Assembly: GCA_051294905.1 (NCBI GenBank)
Contig: CM119372.1
Location: forward strand, 36,024,001-36,088,000
Length of the DNA stretch: 64,000 nucleotides
Reading direction: 5' to 3'
Source: Botryllus schlosseri
Lineage: Eukaryota
Positions 1 through 52,047 of the stretch are shown here, piece by piece; position 1 is the first letter of the stretch, and each line of letters opens with the position of its first letter. The notes beneath the pieces were generated by a model, which ran no database searches, was not told where the DNA came from, and saw only the letters and a list, made by a program, of their open reading frames with translations. Made by a program: the position numbers and the translations under genes.

Positions 1-554
1 GCCGCCGAATAGGAACTTTGATGTTGTTATACTGTTCTCTTCTTTCTTGTCCTTCAATTCAATGTAATGTATCATTTTTCGTTTCGTTATTTTGAACGGA
101 ACGGGCTCATCCACTTCCTTTGTAGAAGAGATCCCGAGAGCTTTGCGAGCTATTCTACGTGTAAGAGTCGTTTTTCCTGATCCTACAGGTGCGACGATAG
201 CAGTGACCCCAACTACATCATCCGGAGATAATTTAATATTGTTCGATATTGCTTCCATGACCTCTTCCATTGTGATCGATTTACATTCCTTATCGTGTTG
301 ACGGTAAAACCCGAAATCCTCGGTCAACTGATTTCGAAAATCTTTTCTTCTAATTCTGGTTTGGGCATCAAAATGATTTTCCATGCGAAAACGACCTTTG
401 TAATAATCGTCAACATCAACTTTTTTCATCCGAGGGAAAACTTCGAAATCCGGTTCATGAAGAATTTCATTCTTGAAGTCTTCGCGAATGCCAATGGCCG
501 TTTCTTGCCGAGTATGATGGTTAACAATCGCTATCAATTCGCCGTAGTTTACGC
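1..554 (-). CDS. Large exon of a NACHT/NLR-like P-loop NTPase gene (continues off the left edge)
   Basis: Acceptor tttttacag|GC at 554, then an open frame to base 1: ..VNYGELIAIVNHHTRQETAIGIREDFKNEILHEPDFEVFPRMKK...VVGVTAIVAPVGSGKTTLTRRIARKALG...MIHYIELKD...SKFLFGG. A hydrophobic strand, Walker A (GSGKTT) and following helix resemble NACHT/STAND NTPases. Absent from the ORF track because there is no stop codon in the window. Confidence 0.8.
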
Positions 555-636
555 CTGTAAAAAGTCCGACAATTATTAGATGTGCTGCTAAAACAAAAAA
601 GCGGATACATTAAAACTGATTTGACGTACTGCCAGA

Positions 637-1892
637 CAGGACTTTGGAGCCGGAGCCGGATCCCGAAGCCGGAGCCCCGGAGCCGTGCATTTTCACCGGA
701 GCTGGAGCCGGAGCTCTACATATAATTCAGCCGGAGCCGGAGCTGGAGCCCGTTATTTGAGGAGTAGCTCCGGCTCCGACGTATTTCATAAGATGCTAGG
801 CTATATATGCAACTACCACATCTGCTGATTTATCATAATTGAACAGCAGGCCTGAATTTTATTGCTGTGTACAGCAATGGCAGCCTGTGTGCGTTCTAGT
901 GGAACTAGTTACCAACCATTGACAAGTATTCATTAAGATGTCACAAGCCAAGATGTCACCAAAGTCTTCGTTGCTACATCGGATGTTACTGTCGGTTGAC
1001 AAATTCTAGATTACTATAGATAACTAACATATGTGTAGATAAGTAATCTATATAGACCAGAATGGCCTTTTCGGCTAAAGGGACACATGCTATTGACGAA
1101 CGAGTGCGCGGTCCACTAGCCACGCGAAGAGGGTAAAATTTTCAAAGTTTATAAATAAACAAGGTCAATAATATTATTACTTGAGTATATTGCGGGTCTG
1201 CTGTATACCGCCCGCTAGGCTTAGCTTGCAAGGACACGACTATTCGGCGTCTGGCCACATCGATATCGAAGGTCTCCGATAACGTGCGACAATGATTTTG
1301 TGCCTACATTTCATCATCATCATTTCATCTTCATGCGAGCGTAAACGCGAAAAGACTTTCTCCCGTAATTGCGAATACAGTTAGACTCAATCGGGTAAAT
1401 TAGGCTTTTTTTCATTTTTGGTAGGGGGTAGGCAACCAAGCAAGAAATTGTGTGACAATTGAACACGCGAAGCGTGAAGAATTTCACTACTATTTTAGTT
1501 TATTGTGATGTAAGACGATATACTGAAAATGTGACTGTACCATGGATCTGCCAATGCGTCGGAACTGATATTTTGGTCATCAACATCCCAAGTGTCGCAG
1601 TCATACTTCTAATTTTTGGCTGGCATTGCAAGTTCACAATCTGAGCAATTCATTTTCGATAATATAATAAGAAAATACCTCGCAGGCCACGCAAAACTTT
1701 CTCGCGGGCCACATTCGACCCGTGGGTGGGCAACCCCTGATATAGAAAGGCCCATTCGATAATTTCAGAGCCGGAGCTGGAGCAGTGGTAATAATGCGGG
1801 TCCGGAGCTGGAGTCGGAGCTAATGTATGATAGAAGAAAGCTCCGAAGCCGGATCTGGAGCAGTTTAAATTTACGGCTGCTCCAAAGCCGTG
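637..1892. mobile_element. hAT-type MITE with GGAGCC subterminal repeats
   Basis: Ends CAGGACTTTGGAGC / GCTCCAAAGCCGTG; 8-bp TSD ctgccaga (629-636) / ctgtcaga (1893-1900). A related fragment starts near 18496. Confidence 0.75.
1058..1739. mobile_element. Degenerate Charlie/Buster-type hAT MITE nested in the 637-1892 element
   Basis: Right end GGGCAACCCCTG; left end decayed; TSD atatagac / atatagaa; internal GCGGGCC motifs. Confidence 0.55.
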
Positions 1893-1991
1893 CTGTCAGA
1901 TCAGTAACACATTTTCGGGGCGCTATCTGAAAGTTGCTACCAAAAAATTGATTTCGGCTTACCGCCCGTAACATAGATGATAACACAACAC

Positions 1992-2396
1992 TGGGGTTAC
2001 CATACGTCCTCTTTTAAGAGTATTTGTCCTCATTATTGACTTATTTGAAAGTATCATCGGAGTACGCCTTAATGTCCTCTTTTTTTAAAAAAATTGTCCT
2101 ATTTTTGAGAATCTTGGTTAAATATATGGCAAAATCGACATAGAGTAAATCAGCAATGAAGTAACGCTGCGCCGGGTATTTCCGGAGCTAGGCCGGAAAA
2201 CTGACTTTTTCAAGTCAACCACCTGATAATGTGACAGAAAAAATGTATTTTGGGCGATGAGCGTGAAAGATGCTCATTTTTTATTTTAGTCAACCGACCA
2301 CGATTTACCATTTTTTAAAGATTATCCTCCGGTTTTGGTAGTCTGAAAAGTTTCAAAACGTGTCCTTATATCAGATTTTCGAAATATGGTAGCTCA
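1992..2396. mobile_element. hAT MITE (GGGTTACCATA ends)
   Basis: Ends TGGGGTTACCATA / TATGGTAGCTCA; perfect TSD cacaacac (1984-1991, 2397-2404). An inverted relative lies at 10081-10505. Confidence 0.75.
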
Positions 2397-4549
2397 CACA
2401 ACACTGACTGGGGAAATATGATTGCAGGGGCACATAGTCGCATCGTATAAGTATTGTTGGTTAGCGCTCGCTTTGCAGACCAAATAACCAGTCGGTATCA
2501 GTACCAATATTGATACGCCACAGAGTTTCATCTCGGAATTGCGTACCAATGAACGTATGAGTGCTGTCACATCCTTGAGTGTCTTGACGTCGGCTTTCTC
2601 TCATTGCGATCAAAAGATATTGCATTGAGATGGCGAAATGCACCAGTGTATCGTTATCGCAGCCACCCCCACCGAAAACCGCGCAAATTTGAAGGGAAAT
2701 AATGTAACGGGTCGCAATCAATCTCTCAAATTGGGTAATGATCTTTGCAGTAAAATGTTGCAGTTAAATATTGCAGAAGTTTGCAGAAAAAAACTGAGTT
2801 TTCCCGGACAGGTTCATCAAACATGGAAAAGATTTATTGCACTAGTCGCGATCTATGCTTTTGCGAAAGTTCTTGATAAATGCAGGAAAGGAATTACATT
2901 AGTTTTCACTGATAACCACAAAAAGATCCCCGCAATCGAGCAAAACAGACGGGCTAGAGCTTTTTTGAGGTACAAAACTCCAATATACAATTGAATGGTG
3001 TATTCATATTAAAATAAACCCGACTATCGTCGGCTGACACTCGTCAGGGGTATTCGTCAGCAACTAGTTGAGAATTGGAAAGAACATATTATATCAGCAA
3101 TCGTATCGCAATTTCAACAATATATCACACGGCATTCACCATACATTAATGTTGACAACATCAGTCGCACGGCACGCTTTGATTGGTGAAGTTGAGAAGT
3201 TGCTATACTTTTGCTCTTGAACTGCCAAAGTTTCTACGGGTGGGATTTCGAAGCAAATAGTCTGGGAGCCGACGGCCTAAGTCCGTGCTCATAGGGTCTT
3301 GGAAGGTTTGAAGGTCGGAATTGAAAGTATAAAATGCACTGATCACAAATCTTAACGTCAGCCGTTACCGCTCCGGGGGGTTTGGCTGTGAGGGGGCAGC
3401 AAAATTTTGCAAAAAACTGAAATTTCGACTCATAGGTACAGCGTCAGTTCCGATATTTTAAGGAATAGTACCCTTTCGCATAACACAATATATATGAACT
3501 GACGAATGATGGTGGTGGAAACGCGAGATACGGCCGTCTGAAAATCGACTGTCAGAAAAAGTTCTTGCCCCATTTTCAAATCGCTGCCAAAACGAGAGTA
3601 ATGTTGCAGCTGATAACAAGTTCAATCATGCTGGTAAATGCTAATAAATCCACCAGGTCGCAGTTGTGTTGCATTCATAAGTAATTAAATGAATATCGCG
3701 GAGAGAGAATGGAAGCAGACGAAGTGAATATAGGTAAAGATTATATGAAAATTACAGCTTATAGGGATTGATCATGTATAACCACAGTCATGCTCGTTGC
3801 TCATTTTGCGATAAAGTTATTCCCATACACAGCTATCGTGTATACAGGATTTGTATCAATTAGCATGAGGCGAGGCTCTTTAACTACGTTTGCTTTATAT
3901 GTCCGACGTATATGACAATATTGCTTTAAATTTAAGCCGCAAAACATTCTAAGATTAGCCCCCCCCCCATCATTTAACGATGGAAAATGGCCATGGGCTG
4001 GGCATTCAATCAGTACATAAGGTACGGTTGAAGATGGCCAATGTCCATGCGCATTGATACAACGAAGTGACTATGATGGATGTTGAAGTTGAGTACTTCT
4101 TGGTGAAGTGAAAGCACGGTTTATGCTATAGATTCTTGTTGAAGGAGGGGAGGCTTTTCTTCAAATCACCTCATTGCCATAGGCTACCTGAGTGAATACG
4201 ACTTTCCGATATACATCGAGGCATCAGACGACTTACATATAATTTAGCCTACGTCGGTACCAAAAAGCATTTGTGCTTTCAGGTTATTTTGCATCCACTG
4301 GGAAGGATTGATTTTATTCTTTCTCTAGAATGACGCTCCATAGCGTCACCTGGTAACGCAATATGCATTGGCAATTCTCCATGTCAGTGCATGGTTCCAA
4401 AACATTTCCAGAAATTTTGCCTGGAGGATCTTTTGCTATCATTTCGATCTTTTGTGGCCCTAAATTATGGAGCAAATCTATAGGGAAAATGTGAAAACCA
4501 CACCAACGAAATTATAAGCAACAGGTTTCAAATATTCAGTGTGCGTTTA

Positions 4550-4770
4550 TTAATGGCATGGGTGCAGTTGTGTTGCTGCAATGAAGTCATCAGCAGTCTT
4601 TGGTTCGGTTTTCGATAGCGAATCTCTCATGTCGTCTGCTATATACAGTTGGTTTCTTTATTCGTGTTTGATAAATAGGCTTTGATTTGAAGAGGATCTC
4701 ACGTTAGTAGTTGGCTACAAAAGAAACGCGAACTTTCCTAGCCACCTTTGAAATATTTGGACAGGGCCAA
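4550..4770 (-). pseudogene. Fossil C-terminus of a Buster/Charlie hAT transposase
   Basis: Broken frames read PNISKVARKVRVSFVANY*RE... and RNQLYIADDMRDSLSKTEP...TQLHPCH*, matching the Buster YP..SK.A.K.L.PF.TTYLCE and R.RL...DD.R..LS...P....Q.H.SH ending. Confidence 0.6.
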
Positions 4771-6309
4771 CTGTCCCATTTCTATGTAAATCTTCCCACT
4801 TCATAGTAAATAGGGTGGTAATAAAATGGTGCAATTTGTCAATTGACTTTGATTTTTTCGCTGTTTTCACCATGGAGCAGTTGAGAATATAAGACGCTTA
4901 CTAAAAGACAATGCTAACAAGACACACCTCTTTTCGGTTACTACCCATGTTACCTCAGTACGGGCAGTGACGCGTGTTTGCGGGGATATCTAGAAGTAGA
5001 ACCTACCAAAAGTATGGGAACCCTCGACAAGTTCTATTTTTGGAAGCTATAATTACTTGAGTAGCTATCAGACTGTTCATTCTTTTCATACACTTGAAAT
5101 AGTCTTGACACGTCTGGGAAATTGCTATAGGTATACCTCTACTTGAAATTGAGCAGAAATCCATGGAATTACTGTCTACTTGAGTAGCGAAGCTGAACAC
5201 TTTCACTGGTGGTGTTGCATCAAATCGTTTGTCGACCAATCGATATTCAATAAGTCCAGGGTTATTCATTGACTCTTGTATATCCAGTTGATACAGCGCG
5301 GTTAACTGTCGATATTCGTCAAGTGCATATAAATTAGGCAGAAAATCGATTATTCACCTTCTCCAGGCGTGGCTGGTAATACTTCTTCGATAAATACTTA
5401 CAACTGAGCGAGTCAGCATTGACTCATTTCCCTTATTTTAAAATCAAAACTGTTGACCCAATTGACATCGGATGCTTACATGTAGGCTATCCAGATATCC
5501 CATAAAAATACGTAATTTATTGTATGGAAATCGACAGGAAAACACCACAAGATAGAGTATAGTTATGCTAAACCAATACGTTAGATTTAACGTTATACAG
5601 ATAGAGTTTCAAACATACGGCCAGTCAAACGATTTCATCCGATCCGCGAAGCAATTCCGAGTAGATTGAAAAATCTCTGTATTATCCATCACATTCGTAA
5701 GAAATATTGAGGATTTTAGTAAAAAATACTTCCATTAATTAATCCCTCAAGACAGCAGATGTAGAGTATGCTGATGTTCAATTGTTCATCGACCACATTA
5801 TACCCAATCGATTACGGTGATGTGGTTTCACTCTAGTCACAAGCTGCAGATATTGACAGCCAATTCCGAGAAGGAAAAATGTGCTTTCCGATCTCAGAGT
5901 TTTATCGAAAAATTGACCAGAAGTAAAAAGGCCAGTGCGAAACTGTCATAGGCGGAGAATATAATAGTCACAAATAATTATAATTCAAATATCTGTGGTC
6001 GTACTGCTACATCAATTCTGACTCAAAAGGTCCCCGCGGCTTCATCGAGAGAAACTGGAATTGCGATTTAATAATAATCAATTCCAACGTCCGCGGTAAC
6101 AGTTAAATCTGTTCTAGTAATATAAATTCATACGCAGGGTTGACGCCAGTATACAACTAAATAAAGGGATCATAGAAATGACAAATTATATCATAGCTAT
6201 AGCCACTGTTTTAACAATTTATAACTGGACGTATTCAACCTGCCGATCACCGCATTATTGACAATTCCATTGTTCACGAATTAAGAAGTAACTAGAATTT
6301 ATTCTAAAT

Positions 6310-6639
6310 CAGCGGTTCTCAACCTTTTTTTTTAACACGGCCCCCTTTTTCATAATGAAAAATTTCGCACCCCACCCCCCTTATCGTCATATCACAAAAT
6401 CCAACTGGGATGCTAGCAACCCTAATAGATTGTTTGGTGGCATGGTCGGTTATGAATGTTGATGAGAGAATAGAAAAATACGAAATTTGATCCATATAGA
6501 GAGAAGGACGCGTGTATTGGAGGTAAATCACGCGGAGTGCGCAATTTTTCTCCAGGTGACAGCTTCTTCTCGCCCCCTCCAGATGTTTCACGACCCCCCG
6601 CATCCCAGGGGGCCCCGCTGCCTAGGTTGAGAACCCCTG
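6310..6639. mobile_element. Charlie/Buster-type hAT MITE
   Basis: Ends CAGCGGTTCTCAACC / GGTTGAGAACCCCTG; perfect TSD ttctaaat. Partial relatives near 19295-19580 and 38491-38700. Confidence 0.85.
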
Positions 6640-7544
6640 TTCTAAATGAATAGGCATTACTGGTCAGCCTTCAGGTTTAGGATTACCGGACTATGACCTT
6701 ACATATCGATCTCGCCTTCCTCTGCATGTCACCTCAATTTTTCCCTTGCCTTTTATATTCTATGCTATGCTTTTCATTCATTTTCATCTATAACTTCATC
6801 GCATAAATGACTGTGAATATTTGTTCAATCCCAAAAGCTGTAATTTTCACAAAATCTTTTGCTCTATTTAATTTGTCAGATCCATTCTCTCTGACCAATA
6901 TTCATTTTAATTACTTATGAATGCGAAATCTCGGTGACATGGTAAATATATTGGCATTTCACCACGATTGAACCTATTATCAGCTGCCACATTACTCTCG
7001 TTTAGGCCGAGCTTTATAAAATGTGGCAAGAAGTTTTTCCGAAAGTCGATCTTCCGACGGCCGTATCTCGCGTTTCCACCACTATCATTCGTCAGTTCAT
7101 ATATATTGTGTTATGCGAAAGGGTACTGTTCCTTAAAATATCGGAACTGACGCTGTACCTATGAGTCAAAATTTCAGTTTGTTTGCAAAATTTTGCTGCC
7201 CCCTCACAGCCAAACCCCCCGGAGCGGTAACGGCTGACGCTAAGATTTGTAATCAGCGCATTCTATACTTTCGATCCCGACCTTCAATCCTTCTAAGAAC
7301 CTATGAGCACGCACTTCGGCCGTAAATTCTCGGTCTAAAAGTATCACCAATATAACTTCAGATTTCAAAAATGTTCTATCATAAGTGCGATGACACTCGT
7401 AAATTGTAAGTGGTGTTTTTGGTGTTACATGAATGAAAAATTATTTGCGGCTCACGTTTCGTTTTATGCGATGACAAATAAGTTACATTGGATCATTGTA
7501 GGTTGATGATGCGCAATCGGAAATAACCAGAGAGATGAACTCAC

Positions 7545-7670
7545 AATCACCTTGATTTCGTGCCGATTGCCCGACAATAGTGACGTTGTTATTATTCCCA
7601 GCTACAACAGTTATCTGGCTGCTCACAAACTTCTGATTCACAGAGTCTCCTTCAGCTAAGGTCGCAGATC
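7545..7670 (-). CDS. NLR-like gene exon carrying RHIM-like motif copy 2
   Basis: tttttttgaag|...|gtgagt; 126 nt, phase 1-1; GSATLAEGDSVNQKFVSSQITVVAGNNNNVTIVGQSARNQGD. Splices in frame onto the 554 exon (T|GC = Cys). Paralogous to 16991-17137. Confidence 0.7.
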
Positions 7671-7695
7671 CTTCAAAAAAAGTAATAAGTTAGAC

Positions 7696-9247
7696 CAGGG
7701 GTCACCAACACGCGGCCCGCGAGTTCATATTTTGCGGCCCGCGACCTGATTTGGAAAAAATTCGGAAGAACGCTTAGTAAAGCATTTTGAAATGCTGAAC
7801 TTGATATTGTTGTTTTTGTTTAAAATAAGCCATTCTACTGTACTCTATATCGCTATTCCTCAGTAGCTGATACGGCTTCAGCATCGTAATATCATTCTAT
7901 GGAGGAGGAATTTGCTAGTATAAATGGGCATTGGGTATATTGCCTTGATGTGCAATAGCCTACCAGTACCAAGACCGAGACGCTTGAAAACGACTCCTGT
8001 TTCTCCAAAATACAATGCTTCACGAGGATATCGTTTTCCAGCAATTAGGCTACCGTGTCTAGCTAACGCCAATATCGATTCTTTAATCCAGGGGTGGCCG
8101 ATCTGCGGCAGCAGAAAGAAAATTATGCGTCCGTCGACACTTAATTCAATTAGGATGTTTTGGCGGCCGTCAATATATGCAATTGAATTTACAAATTGAC
8201 TCATTGATTAATGAAAGGTTTGGATTATTCTTGAAATTTTCTTCGCGCTGCGCGCAGTTCCATGCGTGTTGATTTTCGATTTTAATATAGTATAGTGTCC
8301 TTTGTAATCATACAGTACAGATGCATGCGCAGGCATGACGCATGCGCCCCATAAAGAAATACAAAATTTTTAATCGTGTTCTCCTCATCATGAATGAAAT
8401 TTCTTTCTGGTATAAGCCTGCATTTGAGGAATCAAATGGGCCATATCTCCACTATACCGACAACTCTGATGGGAGGTCAAGAAATAATTGCATGCAACAA
8501 AGGGGACTAATGAGAATTGGCCCAACAAAAGATGCAGCACAGCATTAATAACTTCCCATTCGCTTTTTCGAAGACACGCTCTGCAATAGGTCTACCGGTG
8601 AATTGGATCACATTGGCCGAAAAAGGATAAATATTTGATTGTAATATGTGAAACTATAGTAATATTAGATAAAGAAATTCACTCACGAACATGAAAATTT
8701 TTTCGCGCTTGGCGCGACCACGGAACGAATCCCTGTGGCTCTTCATAATATGATTACTAACGATTTCGCTGCGCATAGTAGCCGATATGCGTAAATATAT
8801 TAGTCCGGATGGTACCAGCAATGGGTATGGGCAGTTTAACGTGGCTATTTCGCCCCAGTTAGGTCATTCTGACTATTAAACGGAATGCGGCCGCAGGCTA
8901 CATGAGTAATTGCAATACGGCCGTGAATAACAATTAGGTTGGCCAGTCCAGACTTAGCTGCTACAGAGCGTTGTCAGGTATGGGACACAGGTCATAGTTG
9001 AAAATATAATGAAGTTTATTATGATGACATTTTTGTTGTATTTGTGTTTGTTCAATAAAATATTGCCTCTTTTGTAGTGAATATGCCCGTCGCCCATGTT
9101 AAAGAGCATAACATTGTAATAACGTAGAGTTATCAGACGTGGCTGACTGTGTTGCCTACTTCAATCTCGATATTGATGTCATGCGACCCGCGGTCTCTAG
9201 GAATTTTGAAAAGTGGTCCGCGACCCATTTTGAGTTGGCGACCCCTG
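7696..9247. mobile_element. Charlie/Buster-type hAT non-autonomous element, probably with a second degenerate copy nested at ~8089-8951
   Basis: Ends CAGGGGTCACCAAC / GTTGGCGACCCCTG; perfect TSD agttagac (7688-7695, 9248-9255). Confidence 0.85.
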
Positions 9248-9488
9248 AGTTAGACCCTGTTAGATTGCTTATTAGGATGATGGATACGAAATTGAAGCTC
9301 TCACGTCTCCCTGGTGCATTCGCATTATGCCTGATATCATCAGACGCCCTGCAGATCCATGTTTTATTACTTCAACATTGATCGCAGGGGCCTCAAACGT
9401 CCGGCCCGACGTAAGGATCCGGCCAAGAAGCAATGGTAAGGCTTAATAATGCACATTTCTATAGAATGCGGGCATAAGATATACTTAC

Positions 9489-9792
9489 CTTGATCTGTGG
9501 ATAATCCTAGAATTATCATCTGAAAACGCAAACACCTCCGCTTCTACGGGTTGTAATTGAGTCAAATTTGTTTTGCATCGTTTTTGAAGACAGCTCAACA
9601 ATTTCATGGGGTTGATAGAAATATTTGACCAAAAAATATTTGTCTTTGTCAGTAAATTCAAAATTTACAAATTGTAAGAAATACGCGATTGCCGGTTGAA
9701 ATGAATTCAAATTAGGTGAGCGTCGTTTTCAAGGCAACCTAACGATTTAGTCGCCTAATACGCAAGATTCAGGATTTTTTTGAACAGCCCTA
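9489..9792. mobile_element. Half copy of the TAGGGCTGTTC foldback MITE family
   Basis: Ends TTTTGAACAGCCCTA and aligns by eye to one arm of 62606-63222. Confidence 0.6.
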
Positions 9793-10080
9793 ATAATACC
9801 CACTGTCATGTGTGAGAGGCCAACGTGTAAGTGCGGGGCATGTGAGGCAGACTGTCTATTTGATTTTGAACATGTTAACTACCAAAATCACGCAATTTGC
9901 CTATTTTTATGTTTGAAAATAAAGCGTGAAAAGAAAGGTAAGGAGTATGCGAGGCACGGCCGTGATAGCGCAATTCATCGTAAAAATCTTAGAATTTATA
10001 ATTACTGATATTAATTGAATGTAAATATCGCACTGGTTCTGATTTGACTTCTAAATTCTCAAGGTATTCTGCGGTAACAT

Positions 10081-10505
10081 TCGGGTTACCATATTTTGGA
10101 AATATGAAAAGAGGGCAATTTTTCAAAATTTTAACACTTGCAAAACCGGAGGAAAATCTTGAAAAAATGGTCAACTTTTCACACTTCGTGGTAGGTTGAC
10201 AAAAAAATAAGGTCAACTTTCTGGGTCAACTCCCGAAAATACATTTTTCTTTCACATCATCAGGTAGGTCTAGCTGACTAAACAACAGGTGAACTTCCCG
10301 GCCCATCTCCCGAAATAGCCGCCGGTGCGTTACTACAGTGCTGACTCATTGTGCATCTGTCGCATTTGCCTGTATATCTGACCGAAATTCTGAAAAAAGA
10401 GGACGAAGTCTCAAAAAGAGGACATTTGGGCTTCATCCGAAGACAATTTCCAAAAAGTCAAAAAAGAGGACAAATCCATTTAAAATAGGACGTATGGTAA
10501 CCATA
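10081..10505. mobile_element. hAT MITE, inverted relative of 1992-2396
   Basis: Ends TCGGGTTACCATA / TATGGTAACCATA; TSD ggtaacat / gttaacat. Confidence 0.7.
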
Positions 10506-11738
10506 GTTAACATAAAGTCGAGCCACGCCCCTACATTTAACAGCGACTACAAAGCTACGTTGGCAATCACGAACGTATATAGCTATGACGTTGTTTGTGC
10601 TTTGAATTTGTAATTGTGAATGCCCCTTCCACCCACGGTATTTCATTTCTCGCTGCAGATCAGGAAGACAATGTGTATTATTTGAAAACTGCATTGTGAT
10701 ACAGGCGCCACCGTGTCTCCTATAGTCTCTCTAATCTATCAATGTATCGTGCAATCCGAGATTTCGGGCCGGGCATATTCGAATTCGGGAGTGATATTGG
10801 TCGCCGGCGCAACAGCAACTAAAATTTGAGGATTTTGAAAAAGGGGCCTGAGCCTCGAACCCCGAATACGCCACTCTATAAATCTTGCAAATCCATGTTT
10901 ATACTACCACAAGAATAATTATACTTGTCGTGATGGAGATTTAAAAGCAAGTCGCTGCAATATTAATACATTAGGCATAAAAATAAATTTTTGAAAAGAG
11001 TCATATCCTATGTCCAACGGAGCCATATATTGCTCGCGAGCCCTAAGTTCCCGACCACTGATCTATACGTTGCGTCTTTATATTTCAGTCAGAACGAAAC
11101 CCATTAAGAAACAAATCAACATAAAATTTTGATTGTATATATCATGGAATGGGATTTCGAAGGACTCATCCAAACATTTTCATGAAAACGGCGTTCCAAA
11201 AAAGGGGCATTGCTAAACCAATCACGTGCCATTCTACTGCAAAACGATTGCTTGGTTTATGGCTTACAAATGCATTAATTACCCACCTATATTTTTTAGT
11301 GCACATCTTAAGAAGTATTATTGAAGTATAAGTTGAGTTCCAGACAATGTGCTCATGAGTTGCTTTGAAACTTATCGAATAACTTTAGCCAGACATAACC
11401 CCCAGTTCATATGTGAACAATACCCTATTAAACGGCAATACCATGCTTGATTTCATGGACACGGCCACAAAATGTGCTTATTTATCAGAACGCTGAACAA
11501 CAGATCGCTCTTTAGTGGCATCTGCTTGTCTCGCGGCACAAATAATAATCTCGTGGCACCAAGTTGGGGAATCACTGATCTAGATGCTCACGTAAGTATC
11601 GTCCGTGACCACTTTTGTCCCCCATCTCGCCACTCGTTCCGCTAAGATTTCTACACTCGATCCTTTAAATACCACGCCCTAATGCTACGTCTTCCTATCT
11701 CAGCTATAGAGACTTACTCAGACAAGTTGACTCATAAG

Positions 11739-13343
11739 CAGGCCTGTTTATTTTTGGATGTTGGGTTTTATTTTTGGAGATTCTCCAAAAATAAGATTTG
11801 AAAACATCCAAAAATAAGATTTTTTTGGATGATGTTTTTCAGTGAAATATACAAGTCAGAGCGATGTAAACGATTAGAAAACGCACAAAAACACACAAAA
11901 CAGCATCTATGTGAGGGAAGGGGTCACCGAAACGCTAAAACTACTTCGACTCAATCCACTTCACGTTTCTGCTGACCTTGCCTGCCTGCCCGCCCCTCTG
12001 CCTTTGTACTCCTATAAGTTTCACAGTGCGACACGTAGAGAAGACGGGAAGGCAGCTTAAGTGAGGCAAAGGGAACGGCGAAATCATATACAGCCATCTC
12101 TGTCACAATCACTTCGTCCACACGATGACGGGACTCATCTGCTGATGCTTCAGACGGCAACACAACTTGATCCAGAGTAGATGGATCGACGAGCATGTCC
12201 ACATTCAAGTTGAAATACAAGCAATGACTACTAAATAAATACAGTCCATCCTCAAGATTACCGGACCACGACTGACCTATCGATCTCGTTTCCCATGACA
12301 TGCCGCCCTATTTCTTGTCGCTTCCTTTTTCTATACTATCTTCTTTACTTTCATTCAGTGTGCATGCCTCCTCTTTACATCGCCTAGGCCAAGGTGGGTG
12401 TCAGATTCCACAGACTACTCCTTGTCGCTTCGACATCTTCCTGTCTTTTCATTGTATCGCATTTTTTGTGGTGTATTGAACTGATAAAATTGCTAATAAA
12501 CCAATGATGATGATGATGATGGAAAGCGTGCGACCCAAGTTTGTTGACGCTCGTTTATTGTCAATGAAGAGGGTGGCCTCTTGGTTGACTGGAAACCGTA
12601 CCAAACTCCTTGATGTTATGGACGAAAACAGTCCGGCGTGTGCAACTTCGCTGCTGTGGTGGATCCATCTGATCGTTCTCGATCGCATGGTCACGCTCGC
12701 ACATAGCTGAGCACCACCGTCACGAAGCTTCATGGTCTTGATGTTCTGATCATGGAGCAGCAGGAGCTCATGTGCCTGGTCGAACGCCTGTGTCCAGATG
12801 AGGACTGGGACGAGGACCGCCACAAGGAAGGTTTTCTGGTCAGAGGGTGTTGGGCTGTCAAAGTTCAATGAGGCACGCAACTTCGTGGAGGATCAGACGT
12901 TTCAAGCGCATTACTGACGAGCGCTTTTCAGGAGCAAAGGCTTGGAAGATTGGAAAGTTTGAAGAGCTAGACATTCCTCCATTTTTGGACCCCTAACCTC
13001 GATGTTTCCCACAATTGCGACGTTCGAGGCCGATATCTCGAAAATCAAGGGGGGGGGGACGTCTCGCAGTGATTAATATTCTCTAGAAGGCATCCTCCAG
13101 GCCAAAGACTAAATTTGTGAAGAATGTATTGGAAAGTTAGATCAAGATCACTGATGATATCTATGTGTTGGAGGACTTGAATACATGATAATAACATACT
13201 TTTGGTGGATTTTTTCAGTAGTAATAGGGCTCAAAACGCCTTCAATTCTTATTTTTGGAGATCCTCCAAAACTAAAATTTGAAAACATCCAAAAATAAGC
13301 TATTTTTGTTATTTTTGGAGAAATCCAAAAATAAACAGGCCTG
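11739..13343. mobile_element. hAT-like non-autonomous element with decayed internal coding-like sequence
   Basis: TIR CAGGCCTGTTTATTTTTGGA with repeated TTTTTGGA subterminal motifs; perfect TSD ctcataag (11731-11738, 13344-13351). Confidence 0.85.
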
Positions 13344-13747
13344 CTCATAAGCCATCCAAACAAACCATGTGCAAAATACAATTATAAACGGAAATACCGA
13401 AAAATCCAGAAACCTCGGGTTTCCACACATGTAAAAGGTCCAGTTGCTACGTAGAACGTCGAACAATGTTTGCGATAACAATCAATGAGGAATAGCCGGG
13501 GTTTGTATGGGGAGATTGTTGAAAAGTCTTTTATAAACCATCAATTCAGCATCTTTCATGGCTACATTATTTTTCGTCAAATAGCCTACATACGTCTCTC
13601 CAAAATTATCTTTGAAAGTATAAGCAAATATGGTGATGCGACAAAGAGTTTTGTTTGGGCGTCCTCGTAGGACAATTCACTTTTCTTGAGAAAAGAGGTC
13701 ATATCCTTTTAAAATACGACATATGGAAACTTTAGGGATATACCTAC

Positions 13748-13864
13748 CTACAGAAGCACCACCTTCATCATTCGACAATGATGATGATGACGATCGCTTG
13801 AAAACCTTGCTTGTATTTCGCCATAATTTCTTCAACCAACTGCTGTTTCCCGTTCGCCTGTCAC
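13748..13864 (-). CDS. Probable NLR-like gene linker exon
   Basis: tttcccacag|...|gtaggt; 117 nt, phase 1-1; DRRTGNSSWLKKLWRNTSKVFKRSSSSSLSNDEGGASV. Joins both neighbouring exons in frame. Confidence 0.55.
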
Positions 13865-15269
13865 CTGTGGGAAAACGGTTCGTCGTATGGTTAAATAACA
13901 CGTCGTCTCACTTGGAAAATCACATCACCATTCAAGTTCAAGCTGACGATAAAAATATGACTCGTTATTTCGAGATCATCCGCCAACCAGGGTGAATTTG
14001 GGAAAGATTGCTTGATTCGGTGCCTCGCTTAAGCACAGTAAATGACTTACCTAAACAAGGTTCTTACGCGGTTCTTACGCACTAGAGGTGATCATAGTCA
14101 AAATACATGTTATGTTATTGGTAGAGCTTTTTAATTCGGTCGCATTTTCTGTGTGGCTTATATCAGTGCTCTTCAGCCGGTGTAAACGGTGCGCCAGGGT
14201 GCATGGAAATCTACATTTGTTGAACAAGCACGAAAGTGGGAACAGGGTTCATGACAAAATTTACACTCGAAATCAATGAATTGTATCATGCGGGTGAAAT
14301 TCGCAATTTGATCGATCTGCCAGTAAGAATCATCCTCTATAATTGACCGATATTTTGGCAAAATGTAAGTGACGCCATTTTTATCGGTACCCATATAGCT
14401 ATGTGACAATTTGTTAACAGGCAGATAAAACTAATGGCATTTTATAGTCGCCACATACAATTATGTAGATGTAGAATGGTTGAAGAGCACTGACGAAGCC
14501 CTACGCAGAAGTTTTCCATATACCTACATCATCACCATGGACAGTGGAGACGTTTTGATTAGATTTGTTGAATAGAGTTTCCGGATATTCGATGTACCTC
14601 GTTCACCTACCACTACGTATGTCTCTGTGATGTAGACTAAATGAAAACCAATTCAATACCATTTATTTTGAGGTTTATCGCTAGTTAATTGCCACAAAAC
14701 TCCATCGTTAGTTCATTGTTATTAATATTGTCAAATTCATTGATGAAAATGGGAGTGACCCATTTCGCCTAAGGCCACTGATGGTCAGGCGCGTCACAGA
14801 CTAGAACATGGGTTGCCAACCTTTTTGACCAAAGGGCCACATGCGGTTTTCTAAGCCAGTGCACGGGCCACTAGAGTAATAATGACGCTTTCGTTAGAGC
14901 GAAATGTAAGGGGGCATGGTACCTTTCATCGCCCCTGGCTACACCATTGCGTAAAAACTGCAACATCCTACATTTCACGGTCAGGCTAATCAGGACCGTA
15001 ACAGCTGTTCGTCAGCCCACCCAAAACGTTGGTCTCGGGCCCCCATAGGGTGAATATTCCAACGTCTGGGGGGGCTTCGCTCCCCCACCCCATACCCCCC
15101 GCCCGGCCCTACCTTTTTGGCCGAAGGTTACTTGCGAGTTCTGTGGAATGTTTGGCGATTCAGCTTTAGTCCTCTAGGCGTGCGTAGCCCAAAAATTTTC
15201 TGTAATTCATCATTGATCGGTCAATGTGATCGGGAATTGCATATATCTTGTTATCAATTTTTATCTTCT

Positions 15270-16900
15270 CTCTGCTCACATAATCCCACTTACCGATAGA
15301 GCTGAGTGAGGTGTCTTGGAACATGTAGGGGCCGTAAATAATATTTAAACAGCTTCAGGCGAACCCGTTGGTATAATGACTTCGTTACATGATGTTATTT
15401 CGTGATCTTCTGTCCGCTATGTCAAAAGATACTGACAAATGATTGTTTCCTGCGGGATGGCAGTTGTCTTGTGGGGTTCAGATTGCTTGGACAGGAACAT
15501 TCGGCGCCATTCATTAAGCGCCTATATATGGACAATTAAAAATATGTATGCATGGACGTTTTCGGTCAACATAAGGGTAGTCCTTCGGTCATATTCGGAA
15601 TCAGTGCCCTTCAGAACCCCCAAAACCACTCTTACTTTGTCTGCCTATAAAATATGAGTTGACCCGATGTCGATGCATCGATGGAAAGTGGCCATCAATC
15701 AATGATCAATGGACATTACGATAGTGCGCTCCTTGCTCATTTCGTTGATATTCGGTGTTCTAGGCCGCTCTACAGTATTGCCGTACTTTGGCTTTCGCAT
15801 CAGTATGGCTAATTTCGTCAGGAAATGTCTGGGGAGGGGAATTTTCGCTATCGGTCAAGCCAATTTGTCGGTCAACTCGTTACCACAAATGTCAGCGTGT
15901 CTCGGTACACAGGCCAGGACAACGATGGTGCCTTTACCAATCGTTTGATTCAGCGAGAGGCCATATTCAAATATAAAATTTCGCGTTGGCTGTGACTGCA
16001 AGATGGCAATAGTATAGTACGCTCAGTCTGTCTAAGATAGTCAGATCTGTGGGGTTTGAGCCATTCTGGCAGATCCATTTTAGAGCGTGGACAATGGTTT
16101 GGGCTTCTATGGAAATGATTGACTTTGGGGTAGAACAAGTTTGAGAAATGTTTATCATCAGCAACGGGATAGTAAACGCATAAGCAGCTCATTCTGTTGA
16201 TATAGACCCGTCAGTGTATAGTTCAATGACATCGTTATAGCGTTTGAATGTGAAGTCCAGGAATATGGGTTGTGTGACAGAGATGAGATACGTTTTATTA
16301 TGATTTTGCCAAGTCTAGATCAACATTTGGTAACTGCATCAACCCTGTCGGGATATCTTGGAGCATTTTTTCTTTCAAGGACCAGGTTACTTAGAGACGT
16401 AACCTTCACTTTCATGTTAAAGGTATTGAATTTTGGGTTCATGAGGCTGACTATATCTAATGCCACGAATCTTCAAGAACTTCTTTTGTTGGGTGTTCGT
16501 AGGCCGCCTGGTGGCGTCTGAGATGGCAGCAGTAGCCTAGTTACGGCTACGCTGCTTGTGACGTCGATGAAGGGGGGTTCGTCATATGATGCTTCCAGTG
16601 CACAAATGGGAGTGGTGCGCATAGTTCCGCAGTAGAGGCGGATAGCTTGATTTTTGAATGGTGCGTTACTTGTCCAGATACTTTGTGGAGGCGAACTAAT
16701 ATGCTGGTAACCGATAGTCAATGAGTATCAGAGTCCTAAACAACTCAGCAATGTTATTTTACTAGATCCCCATGAGATACCATAGTCACTACTCTGGTGA
16801 GATTCAGTCTATTGAACCACTTTATGGAAATCGTATCGATATGTAGGTTATAGTTTTTCAAAGACAGTTACATTGTTATGATTAATGAATGCGCTTACCG
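15270..16900 (-). pseudogene. 5'-truncated, decayed non-LTR retrotransposon with RNase H (I-group-like)
   Basis: Broken frames: end of RT (HIDTI...RLNL...WGS), QAIRLYCGTMRTTPICALE, and RNase H motifs LYTDGS (~16205-16221), EAQTIVHAL and CVPRHADICGNELTDKLA. Boundaries are approximate. Confidence 0.75.
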
Positions 16901-16990
16901 CATTAAAAAGTTACCGGCACCGTAAAAAGTTACCGGCCCATGTATAGTAGACCTTTTCCCCAACAGGGACGCCTACAGCAGTTTACTAAC

Positions 16991-17137
16991 TTTGGCTCGC
17001 AGGACTTGCTTCGCCTCCAGCATTCGAAATGTTGTTGACCAACTTGTTCCCATGTGCCTGATTTTCTGCCACGGCGGTCACCGAGTTTTTCATGAACTTT
17101 TGGTTGACGTTTTCTCCTTCTGCCAACGCTACAGATC
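16991..17137 (-). CDS. NLR-like gene exon carrying RHIM-like motif copy 1
   Basis: cgacttag|...|gttagt; 147 nt, phase 1-1; GSVALAEGENVNQKFMKNSVTAVAENQAHGNKLVNNISNAGGEASPASQ. The first 15 aa closely match the 7545-7670 exon. Confidence 0.65.
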
Positions 17138-17146
17138 CTAAGTCGC

Positions 17147-17786
17147 ACGAGAATATTGTAATGCGTGTTATATTCCGATGCATATTCAGAAAACATCATT
17201 AGAATATAGCCTATGAGGACCATTAAAACCCCTAAATCTCATATTTATCAGGATTTGGTCGCGCAAGCAGAAAGTGGATAGCCCTAACTAATATGGATAA
17301 TGTTAATGAAATGTCGATAAGGCTATGTCATAAATATAGGTCTACTTAACTGCTTTTCACTGATGGTAATGATGGCACACAACGAGAATATTGTAATGCG
17401 TGTTATGTTCCGATGCATATTCAGCAGATAATATTGAAGTAAATGAGGATCATCGAAACTCCTAAACAATGTTACCTCTGAGCTACGCACGTGCGCAAAT
17501 GCGCAGTGCTGACACGGCCTCTGCGCACAGAAAATCTAGTTTGCGCACGAAAAATCCGAAGTGATGACCTTTATTTTTCATTTTCAGTCGTTACGCACTG
17601 TTGTCCAAGGGTTTACGCAGTGAATTGATGAGTGTGCGCAGACTCATCAAAATATTTACTAGGATTTGGTTACGCAAGGAGCAATTGGATGGCCCGCACT
17701 ATTTTGGATAATGTCATTGAAATGTTGAATATGGAATATGTCATAAATATAGGTTTACTTACCGCTTTTCACAGGTGGTAATGATG
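17147..17786. repeat. Diverged tandem duplication (~235-bp unit), second copy interrupted by a ~180-bp insert
   Basis: ACGAGAATATTGTAATGCGTGTTAT...GCTTTTCAC..GGTAATGATG occurs at 17147 and 17382; extra TGCGCA-rich sequence at ~17468-17650. Confidence 0.75.
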
Positions 17787-17813
17787 TAGGCCCATCAGCA
17801 ACAGGAGCCTTTT
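17763..17813 (-). CDS. Probable small upstream exon of the NLR-like gene
   Basis: tcctggcag|...|gtaagt; 51 nt, phase 1-1; KAPVADGPTSLPPVKS. In frame with the 17137 exon. Further 5' exons and the start codon were not found. Confidence 0.5.
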
Positions 17814-20134
17814 CTGCCAGGATAACAACCACGTAAAATGATGTAGTAAATTTATCAAACAACTCTAAAGATACGATAGCAGCAATTAGAATTTTTGATG
17901 AAATCTAAATACTACTTCGGGACTCAAAAATGCGATATGAGCGTCTAATATGGAAGCCGTAACTGGTCACAAACTGACAAGTCTCATTATCCATGTTGAA
18001 TAGACTTATTTACGGAATTGTCCAATAGGCAATTGTTTTTTTTCTCGCATTGTCATACCATAATGTGGGGAATAAAATCAGAATCAGTAAAAGTATTCTC
18101 CCGGACAGCTGAGTCGTCCAGCATATAGAATGTGACAACATTTCGCTTCTCCGACACATTCCCGCGACGAGACAGGGCTCTCCCATTTGAACTGTGTATA
18201 ATGAAAAAGTGACGAGATCGTAAAATTTTTAAAATGTGGCTATGAAATTCCAACGTCATGGAAACAAATCCAGGAGATGTCGAGTAGCCAGTCGCCGCTA
18301 ATTTCCGCTTCACAAATTGGAATAAAAGGGTTGAATTCACCATTTCATTCGAAAAGAGCAAAACTTATATAATATACCGATATTTTAGAAAAAAAATTAG
18401 AAAAGAAATCGGTCTGTTTGGTGTACTTGTACTTGATCAGAATCACCTTGTTCCTCCAAAATACACAAGGGAATATAGTTACATTGGTATACAACCACGG
18501 CTTTGGAGCAGGCGTAGGCTAAACTTCAAACTGTTCCAGCTCCAGCTTGGGAGCTCTCATGTGCTATAAACTAGCTCTGGTTCCAACTCATTGATACCAC
18601 TGCTCCGGTTCCAGCTTCGGCTCTGAAAGGTTAAGTCAGCAGGCTGGAACAACGGCGGCAGCTTGAACACATAGGGGAGATCAGGCCGAACCGTCATTTT
18701 GTGTGGGGAGTGCCCATTGTCGCAGAGACATATCTCATATAGAGTGAGGACCTGTATACGTCGCAAATTATTAATTCGCAAATTATATATATTGATATTC
18801 CTGAGATACTATCCCTCATGGCTTATGCTGTGTATACAGAATAGTCGTCGAATATGGCAGTGTAGAATACCAAAATTATTTATAGGGACGCTTGGGCGTT
18901 GACTTACACAAATATATTTACCACTTGGTAAATAAATGTTCTCAATGGCTTCGATACAGCAACAGGTCTATTTCGTGTCACAATTTCAATCTTGAATTGC
19001 CGAACGGTCTCTCAAGTCCAGCAAACAGGACTGGATACTCAGCCGTCAAATAAAGTTATTTTAAATGTTATAAAGCGAAGGATATATAACTTAGGACGCT
19101 TTGATTTTAATTAAATGCCACAGTGTCCTATCAGGCTGGATTAACAATTGGTATTCATGATAGTATCCGGTTATATAATTGATGATGTTAATAAATGTTG
19201 TCCGTGCCTTGAGATTGATTGCACTTGGGTACAAAATAAATAGCCGATTCTGTCACTCCAATCAGTATCCTAACCGCACATTTATCCCCTAACGCAGTGG
19301 TTCACAACCGTTTTTTGGACACGCCCTCCTTAATGATAGTGAAAAATTTCCCGCCCCCTTATCGTCATATCACAAAATGCAACCGGGATGCTATAGCAAC
19401 CCCAACAGATTGTTTGATGGCATGGAAGGTTATGACTGTTGATGAGAGAATTCAAAAATCTGAAATTCGGTCTATATATAGAGGAACACGCGTGAATTGG
19501 AGGTAAACCGCGCAGGGCGCGAAAAGAAATTTCAGTGGACCGCTTCTTCGCGTCCCCCTTCAGATGTTTTCACGCCCCTGTATGTCCTTACACTCTCCTG
19601 CAAAAGTATATTCAAACTATTTTGAGAACTTGCTACCGATACAGTGCCTACATGTGATTGATTACTCAAGTTATGTAAATGTGGAAATTCCCTTATAAGA
19701 GAACATTCGCAATTAGTATCTAAAATCCTGCATCCGCTTTCACTAAAGCCAGTAAAGCGCCCGGTAGATCTGCCGTGATAGCATACAAAATATGCACTTT
19801 CATCGGAACATTAACGCGCACGCGATGCCTGTTAACCATTACTACCGAACCTTGTGTATATAAGTATGGGCACCAATGCGTCAATATTGAGATAGATGGG
19901 ACGGTTTTTATAATGTCGGTATGCAAGCAAGCCATGTTTTATATATTTTGCTCAACATCAATTAAACACTGTAAAATGTTATGTTGTTACGGGCTATGAT
20001 ATATAAACCAAGTATCACTGGACCGAGAGGATTGGTACGGTTATTAAGTTACAATGACCGTGTGGAATTTTCGATTAATTTAAAATATTTTCTTCATATT
20101 TCATTCCAAACTCCTTTTTATTGTTGTTATATAG

Positions 20135-23820: not shown

Positions 23821-26800
23821 TAGGGTTGTCCAAAATTTGAAAAATTTCGAAAATGCTGCGTTGTAATGTCTTATTCTATAGATTATTGATTAAAAACATC
23901 AACAAGCCTGAAAGAAGCTCTCAGGAACGTCGTTAAGATTTCTTACAAAGCGTTTGAAAGTAGCCGTCTGCATGTGGGCGGGGAATCGATGAAGTGGGCG
24001 GGCAATCACGAACCTAGAATTTTGATTGGTTGGAACCTGTAATAATAAGCTACTGATTGGCTGAAATACTGATTTTGTGATCATTGCTGGTCACGATTTC
24101 GTTCTACTCTGTTGTGTTGGTTTGCAGCCATTTCTGTTCGTGGCATTGGCGATATGGTAAATTGACGTTGTTAATGCTGCCATCGACAACAGCATAACGA
24201 TCCAGTAATATATTTTCTACCTGAACACTGTGTATAACAGTTTTGTTACTTCTTGCACAGGAGCTTGGCCAATTAAGATAAGAATGAACTAGATGCATGC
24301 ATCGTGCTACCTTCGAGCCTTCTAAAACATACCAGTTGACAACGACTGTAACTCATAAATTGCAAACCAGTAGTCAATTTCTCCTTATGGCTTGTTATGG
24401 TAAGTCGACGTCTCTCTCTAAAACGAACGCATATTACACTTTTTATTCAAGATTTAACAAAGGCAAAAATGCTATTTACAAAAGGCATCATTAAAAAGTA
24501 TATCGCAGGGTCAGTGTTGCAGATCACTGGCCTTTGATAAGAGTAGACTTCCTGCTGTCTCCAAAAATCTTCCTATGCTGTTCCACAGCTTGAAGCAAAC
24601 TGTCTCTTTGCTGTTCATTGTCAGTCAAGATTGCAGCATAGTCTGTGCTTAGCTTGACACCTCTTTCTGCGGCATCATTAACGACTTTGACAGAACTAAC
24701 GTAGCAATTCATTTTATTGAATGAATCTGAAAAGTGCCAATCATCAACCGGTTGACGCAGCCAATCCCCAGAGCATTCAAAAACTTCAAATATGTACCAC
24801 GACTGGGGCCCAATAAGGTCAGACAACGTACTGTCCTTGTTGATCTGTATAGTTGCATTCAATGAGGGTGGGCCCCTTCTGAAACTGGAAGTTCGCTCTA
24901 CTTGCAGGAGCGCCTTTGCCATATTTTCCCGGGTTTCCTTGCTTTCCGTCGGTGAAAACAAGGCGTATACAGCGGTTTCCTCAACAATATACCAGTCGTG
25001 CTTCAAAAGCTTTCGTGAAGCAGCTGTGGAAACTTGCTCATCATATTCCTTATAACTCAACATGTGCTGAACGAATCTCAAGTCATTACCAGCTGCATCA
25101 CGACCAATGCTTGAATCCACCCACGCAGGGATATAAAAGAGAACCAAAAATAAATTGAAGCGGCGCAGCAGTTCAACTTCTTCAGATTTGTAATCTAATT
25201 GGTCGGCCCACATGAACATCTTTTGAGCATACAGAATTGTACCCATCCATCTCGCATGGTGTGCTGCACCAGGTTTGTGATGACGTATATCTTCATCTGC
25301 ACCGAGAAGAGCAAGAGCATTAGTCACACATTGCTTGTAGTCATCCCGTGTGAAAAAATCTTTTCTGTTCAACAGTAGCTTGAACTTATCAACTATCATT
25401 GCAGCTCGTTCAGCAAAACATAGAGGAATAGTCAGAGTCTTGAATTGCTGTTCCCTGTCAAGACTGCTCCAGTTCCTTTTAAGGTGGGCAAACCATGCAT
25501 TCTCTGGTCCAGTTGTGGCCTTTCCAAATAAAGATTTCCAAACGTCTTTCACTACCAGCTCATACACATGGTGCCGACATGCATGGTAGAACACCTTCCT
25601 TCCTAGAAGGTCTTCAAGAATCTTTGCCGCATCCTTCTTCCAGCCGCTGTTGCTTGCTGTAGTGTCAAAAACCAAAGCTGTTACAGCATCTTTTATATTC
25701 CAACTTTCAATTATGTTGAAAGTGGTTTCTGCTTGCGTCTGACCTGCAGCATTTTGCATCTTTTGAATGCCAAGTAGTTTTCCTTCTGAGTATTGAGGAT
25801 GACAAGATAGGACAATTGACAGAGCCTCATACCGATTTCCTAATCTATCCTCTGTGAGCTTTCCATCCCAATGAATAGCAACATGTTGAGGTTTATTTTC
25901 TGCAAATTTTTCTGAAATATCCTTGGAAATTTCAAGACGATTTGTTTCCCTGGCTCTCTTTGTCGAAGATCTTGACAGAGAGAACATTGCTATGTCACCG
26001 CCACAAGCCGTAATAAATGCTCCGATCAGCATTGTTGCCTTGTTGTCTGTTATTTGCAATCGATCCAGAGCTTGGGACACATGGGTATTATTCATAATAT
26101 TTTTAGGTGCCATCAGCTTAATGGCTGTCGAGGTGCCAAGACCAACATCAGCATCATAATCAGAACTTGAACTCAAACTATCACCCTCTTTTGAAGATGA
26201 AGAAGATGCTAAAACAACATAGTCATCACTTGAGTCATGTTGAATGTTTTTAACAGTTCTATCCGCCATGGTTGCTGTTTTCTTTTCGATGTCTTTAGCG
26301 AGAATCTTGTCTCTTCCCAACATTATGCATTCGCGAGATTGCTGTTGATCTTCATAGAATGCAATGTCTTCGAGCTTTCTATCATGTGATAGATAAATGT
26401 CATTTTGTATTATTGCTATCGCATCTGTACTTCCAATATCCCACAACTTGTCCAAATCTTCCGTGAATTTTTTCCTCTTACCCTTGGGATCACTTTCCCG
26501 TTTCATGGTCGCCTTCAGAAAAATATATTTTTTGTTCAGTTTTTCAAGTAATTTCACCGCATTTCCTTTAAGTATTGTGGCAATTCTCGCCATTTGCCAC
26601 ACTGTCATGACATCATGAACCACCACATTACATAGCTCACGAGTAGGGGTTGACTGAGGGCAATGGTCTTTCAGATGCAGAAAGTAACTCATTACTTCTC
26701 GCAAGGTTGGTAATCTCGAGCCACAGATGTAATCGCAAGCATATCCGACCAAGTAATGCTCAGATCGAGATCTTGTTCTTCTCTGTGGCAAGTGCACAGT

Positions 26801-50670: not shown

Positions 50671-50725
50671 CATACTGTACTGATTTGTGCTACTGGAATA
50701 ACGGCGACGCTACGGTACTGACAAA

Positions 50726-52030: not shown

Positions 52031-52047
52031 GGTCCTCATCGCCTGCT
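52006..52047 (+). promoter_or_regulatory. -1 programmed ribosomal frameshift signal
   Basis: A AAA AAC in the gag frame (52006-52012), a 7-nt spacer, then hairpin AGCAGGC-ATGAG-gtc-CTCAT-c-GCCTGCT (52020-52047). pol is in the -1 frame and open from the heptamer. Confidence 0.85.

Follow-up and report, generated by a model that had tools for sequence, protein, structure and literature searches.

A conserved motif exon upstream of NACHT domains in Botryllus schlosseri, also found upstream of kinase and NHL-propeller genes

Introduction

Short signalling motifs ahead of a NACHT domain are known from fungi, bacteria and an invertebrate chordate. In the fungal NWD2/HET-S and PNT1/HELLP pairs and in the bacterial BASS motifs, a short N-terminal motif of the NACHT receptor is built of Gly-centred pseudo-repeats and also occurs on non-NLR proteins, as described in the available parts of the sources (PMC7889193, PMC12881547, PMC12261475), and the effector-side motifs recorded there sit at the C-terminus of products of neighbouring genes (PMC12261475, PMC7889193). 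In the amphioxus Branchiostoma floridae, the RHIM-NACHT-repeat protein BF82280 and other RHIM proteins carry a short motif in the usual place of the death fold, and the motif recurs on several immune architectures; BF82280, noted by Kajava et al., is the animal precedent (PMC4262963). The RHIM core is the tetrad (V/I)-Q-(V/I)-G, and RIPK1 and RIPK3 of the necrosome join a kinase to it (PMC12119088, as far as that text is accessible). Within the same portions of these sources, tunicates are described as being without RHIMs (PMC4262963), and RIPK1 homologues combining kinase, RHIM and death domain are given as not found in tunicates (PMC12119088). Ascidian NLRs, in turn, have been described as having no N-terminal domain (PMC11508797, in the part available).

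Here we analyse a stretch of 64,000 nucleotides from the ascidian Botryllus schlosseri, referred to as the window (G000:C2:36024001-36088000, in a genome of 495 Mb). Its NLR gene shares with NOD2/NLRC-type NLRs, including Styela clava XP_077971977.1 and XP_039264287.1, the NACHT domain and, putatively, the rest of the core of winged helix, HD2 and LRR, but in place of a visible CARD, PYD or death domain it carries a conserved peptide module. Like the amphioxus protein, this is an invertebrate chordate NACHT with a short motif where the death fold usually stands, and here too the motif recurs on several architectures. The likeness to the fungal and bacterial systems lies in the N-terminal position on the receptor, the Gly-centred pseudo-repeats and the predicted presence of the motif on non-NLR proteins; however, there is no Pfam sequence match to those motifs, the repeat period is 17 residues rather than the 21 of HET-s, the candidate partner bears its motif N-terminally and in an unlinked gene, no HeLo-type effector was found, and amyloid is only predicted. 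As in the RIPK1/RIPK3 necrosome, a kinase appears to be joined to a short putative assembly motif, but this motif lies before the kinase and not after it, has no RHIM tetrad, and belongs to a kinase known from its sequence alone.

Results

Identity of the window gene

A first-pass annotation of the window proposed an NLR-like gene of five minus-strand GT-AG exons, spliced into one open frame leading into a Walker A NTPase, with two RHIM-like peptides ahead of it. All five segments are present with AG/GT ends (Table 1) and join at four phase-1 junctions; the spliced frame stays open as far as the Walker A motif and contains both peptides. The AG of the outermost segment is probably not an acceptor, as discussed below.

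Table 1. Features of the NLR gene within the window.
Feature	Position	Strand	Basis
Homologue of the family's first coding exon	17763..17820	-	blastn to start exons of L041, L047, L055, L060, L066; phase-1 GT donor at 17762
Motif exon 1, 49 codons, phase 1-1, degenerate (Gly25 to Glu)	16991..17137	-	sequence, alignment
Linker exon, phase 1-1	13748..13864	-	sequence; weak homologues in 2 paralogues
Motif exon 2, 42 codons, phase 1-1, intact family motif, directly precedes NACHT exon	7545..7670	-	sequence, genome search, alignment
5' part of single NACHT-winged-helix exon	1..554	-	Pfam NACHT; PDB 5irm; public contigs ending at acceptor
Walker A of NACHT domain	169..192	-	Pfam, sequence

The NACHT exon runs about 900 bp beyond the window, the whole exon being G000:C2:36023103-36024554 (484 codons). 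The profile search on this extended exon, which the annotation had called for, identifies the NTPase as a NACHT domain (Pfam, 47.7 bits against a cut-off of 26.7, E 2e-12). On the same exon NOD2_WH scores 22.0 bits (cut-off 23.1), and the only PDB sequence matches of the NTPase exon are 5irm and 5irl, both rabbit NOD2. An exon about 7 kb past the NACHT exon matches the HD2/first-LRR region of Styela NLRs (tblastn, E 3e-8) and no Pfam family; no further LRR exons were found within 60 kb. Twenty of at least 150 homologues were looked up, and the 14 that are named are all ascidian (11 from Styela clava, two from Phallusia and one from Clavelina), the nearest named relatives being Styela clava NLRs. 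Word-index protein searches returned no matches. Judged by the sequence of its NACHT domain, the window gene is a genuine NLR gene.

The annotation had seen no death-fold domain, in agreement with a genome-wide Pfam scan for Death in which none of 124 matches falls in the window. The Styela death-domain NLR P0008 likewise has no tblastn match upstream of the NACHT exon.

In runs X1 and X5, public contigs match the NACHT exon as far as base 553 and beyond it show 57 and 234 letters that are not intron. Since they part from the genomic sequence exactly at the acceptor, this acceptor is used and the gene is spliced there; an end at base 553 is compatible with a junction to a GT donor, whose G may be assigned to either exon. 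The exon joined to the NACHT exon is not among the joints listed in the contig alignments, and the 234 extra letters would fit motif exon 2 plus 108 letters of the linker exon. The bin holding motif exon 1 has zero depth in all four runs, although contigs cannot prove absence, and the two raw-read runs, of which 6% and 13% were read, have almost no depth over the NACHT exon. The linker exon encodes a basic, possibly amphipathic helix and a Ser-rich tract, and weak homologues of this exon (E 0.06 and 0.19) lie between motif and NACHT in two of its three non-self matches.

The 5' end of the window copy

In 13 of 30 loci of the family, an ATG start exon of 24-25 codons is found 182-843 bp upstream of the motif exon, so that in those genes the motif begins near residue 26. 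The outermost segment of the window gene (17763-17813) is homologous to this start exon, and the AG at 17814-17815 therefore probably lies inside the start-exon homologue and is no acceptor. The family's ATG position reads CTG in this copy (17820-17818), and the first in-frame ATG, at 17093, falls within motif 1, the next being in the NACHT exon. Position 25 of motif 1 is Glu, where the 29 other aligned copies have Gly. A pattern search of the window upstream of this segment gave no ATG start exon resembling that of the family; its sole match there, at 54072, was dismissed because it is located within a retroelement.

The window copy may start at the CTG, at 17093 (which leaves motif 2 intact) or at another exon, or it may be decaying. 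With an altered start codon and a degenerate motif 1, it is doubtful that this copy has two functional modules, and the annotation's two motif modules hold as peptides, less so as working units. Probably the copy yields a protein with one intact motif, that of motif exon 2, or its 5' end is decaying; a two-motif protein is a possible, somewhat unlikely product.

The motif family

The motif comprises about 30 residues on a phase-1 exon of its own. Genome searches gave at least 117 matches with one query and at least 150 distinct matches with two. All 30 loci read have a phase-1 acceptor at the motif exon and a phase-1 donor, the latter recognised by pattern in 28 and by eye in two. For most motif exons (121 of 150) a NACHT exon follows on the same strand within 50 kb; by comparison, three lie within 30 kb downstream of a NACHT exon and none has one within 30 kb on the opposite strand. 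Conservation in paralogues, on which the annotation had made its proposal depend, is thus borne out.

About 190 NACHT genes were located in the genome, comprising 154 of clade A, 30 of clade B and seven others. At least one motif precedes 88 of the clade-A and 22 of the clade-B NACHTs and none of the seven others, leaving 66 of the 154 clade-A NACHTs with no assigned motif; of the 110 NACHT genes that bear the motif, 11 have it in tandem copies. When one NACHT per clade is compared, the two domains are 21% identical while their motifs are 54% identical with saturated synonymous sites (pS 0.81). Selection has thus maintained the motif ever since an ancient divergence, and the similarity is not due to recent exchange. 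The dN/dS of the motif is 0.39-0.57, a range subject to ascertainment bias because copies were chosen by protein similarity, and the value of 0.57 is only slightly under the 0.67 of the start exon in the same 11 genes.

The motif is rich in Asn (14%), Val (13%) and Gly (10%), with an Ala-rich consensus and almost no Pro (0.4%). Two near-invariant Gly residues stand 17 residues apart, at the centre of a weak 17-residue pseudo-repeat with the nine-residue cores TLAEGENVN and NVVAGDQIN, the score of which was reached by 36 of 2000 column shuffles. Charged residues at motif positions 7, 9 and 26 need accommodating in an amyloid reading.

Of 19 NLR N-termini compared with the motif profile, eight scored higher than every one of 40 local shuffles, at a weak 6-15 bits (family members score 54-77). 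Seven of these are mutually related Styela proteins and one is from Phallusia; by eye, the Styela N-termini contain two to three tandem motif units. In the AlphaFold model of one of them, Styela P0028, residues 1-200 are of low confidence and the remainder is NOD2-like. The AlphaFold monomer of the motif itself is uninformative (pLDDT 59), and a four-copy complex prediction scored 0.01. A search of the ESM Atlas gave nothing or only leads below 0.9, a scan of viral contigs gave 37 pattern matches and no relative, and no description of the motif was found in the literature searched, which mostly comprised sources other than subscription journals. The motif family is real and, within that literature, undescribed.

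Comparison with RHIM and other amyloid motifs

The label “RHIM-like” used in the annotation is not borne out by the family. The core tetrad is present in none of 29 copies, and none of 30 members matches RHIM or a fungal amyloid-motif family in Pfam at E<=10, in a search run with no positive control. The only Pfam match of any member is to RodZ_C (one member, E 0.082), and the motif has no match in the PDB, where short peptides may be filtered out. Membership of the RHIM family was rejected on the missing tetrad and the lack of Pfam and PDB matches.

Other features are those of NLR-associated amyloid motifs. The motif is short and sits at the NLR N-terminus, both in the loci with a start exon directly before it and, by its placement upstream of NACHT, in the wider set of 121; it also combines Gly-centred pseudo-repeats of modest significance with polar/hydrophobic alternation and scarcity of Pro. 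No C-terminal motif on an adjacent effector gene was found, the kinase and NHL carriers detected having theirs N-terminal and unlinked, and for this reason the motif is placed in no known family. In position and make-up it resembles an NLR-associated amyloid signalling motif.

Motif exons before NHL and kinase genes

For 29 motif matches there is no located NACHT within 50 kb. Six of these orphans are resolved, four as NHL genes and two as kinase genes, and 23 are unexplained, including those at C3:16.05, 16.44, 20.18, 21.62-21.70 and 25.4 Mb, C5:3.18 Mb, C10:27.5 Mb and C16:21.1 Mb. Most of the orphans of the initial pass, on C3, C1 and C12, were rejected as effectors since they precede the second NACHT clade. 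The annotation had looked to effector proteins sharing the motif; the motif exon does precede kinase and NHL genes, while Death and caspase scans, checked by eye, gave nothing near orphan motifs.

Each of the four orphan motifs on C8, which are tandem copies, is followed after 4-8 kb by an NHL-repeat terminal exon, and the NHL search ranks these four exons highest. In the C8 copy whose sequence was read completely, no NACHT intervenes, and a phase-1 acceptor leads into an open frame of motif, linker and propeller. The predicted join from motif to NHL runs from C8:3863.9 kb to 3867.2 kb. One of these genes (L047) has the family's ATG exon in front of the motif. About 46 other NHL terminal exons have no orphan motif within 100 kb upstream.

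The two orphan motifs on C5 are arranged head to head, and protein-kinase exons (Pkinase, E 3e-13) follow them at distances of 8.5 and 13.6 kb. In the plus-strand copy an open frame runs from the motif through a helical exon of 29 codons into two kinase exons, and a predicted motif-to-kinase join lies between C5:24987 kb and 24991 kb; no MLKL-type family was found by Pfam on the helical exons, the sequence read ending before the 3' exons and C-terminal half. Purifying selection acts on the two C5 copies (dN/dS 0.33, P 1e-5, with 0.43 for their motif taken separately). The catalytic loop of the kinase is altered, and among the motif groups that of the kinases diverges most, with 36-48% identity to the others. 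In the NHL and kinase motif pairs alike, pN is about half of pS, on small counts.

One further kinase paralogue was found, on C7; its helical exon is longer and includes an ATG. No motif is present in the 8.4 kb read there, and a different gene lies close upstream. Both C5 copies have stops in this old start region and a phase-1 CAG acceptor where the frame reopens, suggesting that the C5 kinases swapped their start for a phase-1 upstream exon. Most simply, the replacement exon would be the motif exon. For one C5 kinase (L070), a possible separate ATG exon ending at 2287 was discarded, as the sister copy has a stop and lacks a donor there. As a new observation, the NLR motif exon precedes four NHL-propeller and two kinase genes, to which we predict that it is joined. 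Each case goes back to one duplication event, and in both the 5' end of an NLR might have been captured.

Discussion

A short, apparently unfolded module that is constant on divergent receptors and turns up again on a kinase and a propeller behaves as expected of a tag for protein interaction. The Gly-centred two-unit pattern and the tandem copies fit a beta-solenoid or amyloid tag of the NWD2/HET-S or RHIM kind, as these are presented in the available parts of the sources (PMC4262963, PMC7889193). Amyloid signalling by the motif is plausible, and we consider it an evenly balanced proposition that the motif is a homotypic tag, probably of beta-solenoid or amyloid form, linking NLRs to the kinase. 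In most of the genes the motif, some 25 residues from the N-terminus, would replace the death-fold domain of other animal NLRs and would be unfolded at rest. Ligand-driven oligomerisation of the NACHT domains would cluster the motifs, which could then stack into a two-rung beta-solenoid or amyloid seed, and the seed would recruit motif-bearing partners. The best candidate among these is the C5 motif-kinase, by analogy with NWD2/HET-S and the RIPK1/RIPK3 necrosome, and the motif-NHL proteins may be extra sensors, adaptors or decoys. We infer all of these steps, from oligomerisation through the fibril to kinase recruitment. The proposal in its entirety, in which more than 100 NLRs from two ancient clades act as sensors and, through an exon-shuffled, non-RHIM amyloid motif, nucleate a beta-solenoid filament to which the motif-kinase is recruited, with motif-NHL proteins as sensors or decoys, is tentative and rather unlikely to hold in every part.

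The motif might instead be a linear peptide that docks, as a beta-strand, onto a folded adaptor shared by receptors and kinase, without any amyloid. This would account equally well for conservation across the clades, and it suits the conserved hydrophobic positions, the N-terminal place of the motif in all carriers, unlike effector-side amyloid motifs, and the lack of a match to known amyloid-motif families in Pfam and the PDB. However, thirty conserved residues with a ladder-like pattern of Asn, Gln and Gly and an internal repeat seem long for a linear motif, and the tandem copies, in Botryllus and by eye in Styela, also speak against docking, which we regard as unlikely. An alternative given still less credence, and improbable in our view, is that motif and start exon form a targeting or stability cassette (localisation, membrane anchoring or degron), or a captured promoter with first exons through which the kinase and NHL genes gained expression control. 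The C8 NHL genes do carry the entire NLR 5' end including the start exon, the motif is under just slightly stronger selection than the start exon, and each fusion arose once; yet the start exon is recognised in only the 13 loci noted above and in none of the five clade-B loci read, whereas the motif persists across clades, and the twofold deficit of pN in the NHL and kinase pairs, small as the counts are, also weighs against a cassette. Finally, the motif lies directly before NACHT in most genes and could act in cis, packing on the NACHT or LRR to hold the receptor off. We rate this as very unlikely, given that the motif is equally conserved on NACHTs of such low identity and also stands before NHL and kinase exons that have no NACHT; the absence of confident N-terminal packing in the Styela model is weak evidence in the same direction.

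The amyloid tag, if it is one, would have consequences at several levels. Through a conserved motif on most of its members, this very large NLR family would have the output module that ascidian NLRs are described as lacking, and the motif-kinase, as a named candidate partner, turns amyloid templating by animal NLRs into a small question of peptides and co-expression. If the proposal is true, there is a metazoan motif family beyond RHIM, in which a signalling tag was spread by exon shuffling, and a fungal-style NLR amyloid signalosome exists in a close invertebrate relative of vertebrates. For a colonial ascidian, this would open a possible link to cell death of the allorecognition type, as in fungi.

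Mobile elements and other gene families

Features located in the window and elsewhere in the Botryllus schlosseri assembly (G000; C, contig; L, stretch of its DNA that was read)
Feature	Position	Strand	Remarks
Partial copy of the start exon's 3' end	window 17382-17415	-	within the intron preceding motif exon 1
Linker exon	window 13748-13864	-	codes for a possible amphipathic helix, basic and with Trp and Leu residues
776-aa single-exon ORF	window 24524-26854	-	
LTR retroelement, gag- and pol-like ORFs	window 50702-55800	+	zinc knuckle, protease, RT, RNase H, integrase
1294-aa ORF and neighbours	L034-L036, G000:C2:35964001-35994000		
Cu-oxidase_4 (laccase-domain) gene, intronless	L072:3983-5212	+	closely upstream of the C7 kinase
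Long single-frame ORF cluster (521-569 aa)	G000:C8:2350000-2403000		both death-domain and caspase matches
Orphan motif exons, tandem array of three	G000:C3:21620750, 21663592, 21703802	+	
Further orphan motif exons	G000:C3:16053823, 16440045, 20181632, 25399326, 25414427		
Further orphan motif exons	G000:C5:3175232; C10:27536472; C16:21122497		

The 776-aa ORF, for which no credible Pfam match was found, presumably resembles a DNA-transposon transposase, and the 1294-aa ORF and its neighbours are taken by us to be Polinton-like in appearance, their Pfam matches being weak. A fragment of an IS4/piggyBac-type transposase is present in another stretch, L033. Genome-wide there are 124 death-domain matches, and because the majority are near-identical and these are often paired in inverted orientation, 5-15 kb apart, they suggest a mobile palindromic element. 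Paralogues of the NHL propeller number about 50, many of them on C8. No NACHT, NHL, death or caspase exons were located near the listed orphan motif exons on C3, C5, C10 and C16, loci that may represent additional motif architectures.

N-terminal regions of the NLRs

Basic stretches comparable to that of the linker exon lie ahead of NACHT in Styela NLRs, and they might bind membranes. The N-terminus of one Styela clava NLR (P0059, XP_039258506.1) carries about ten tandem 33-residue repeats (residues ~150-460), which are rich in Val, Ile, Asn and Gln and differ in type from the motif of the window NLR. Related, beta-prone N-termini occur in P0011, P0018, P0025 and P0027, and together with the P0059 repeats they indicate that several motif families may be in use among Styela NLRs.
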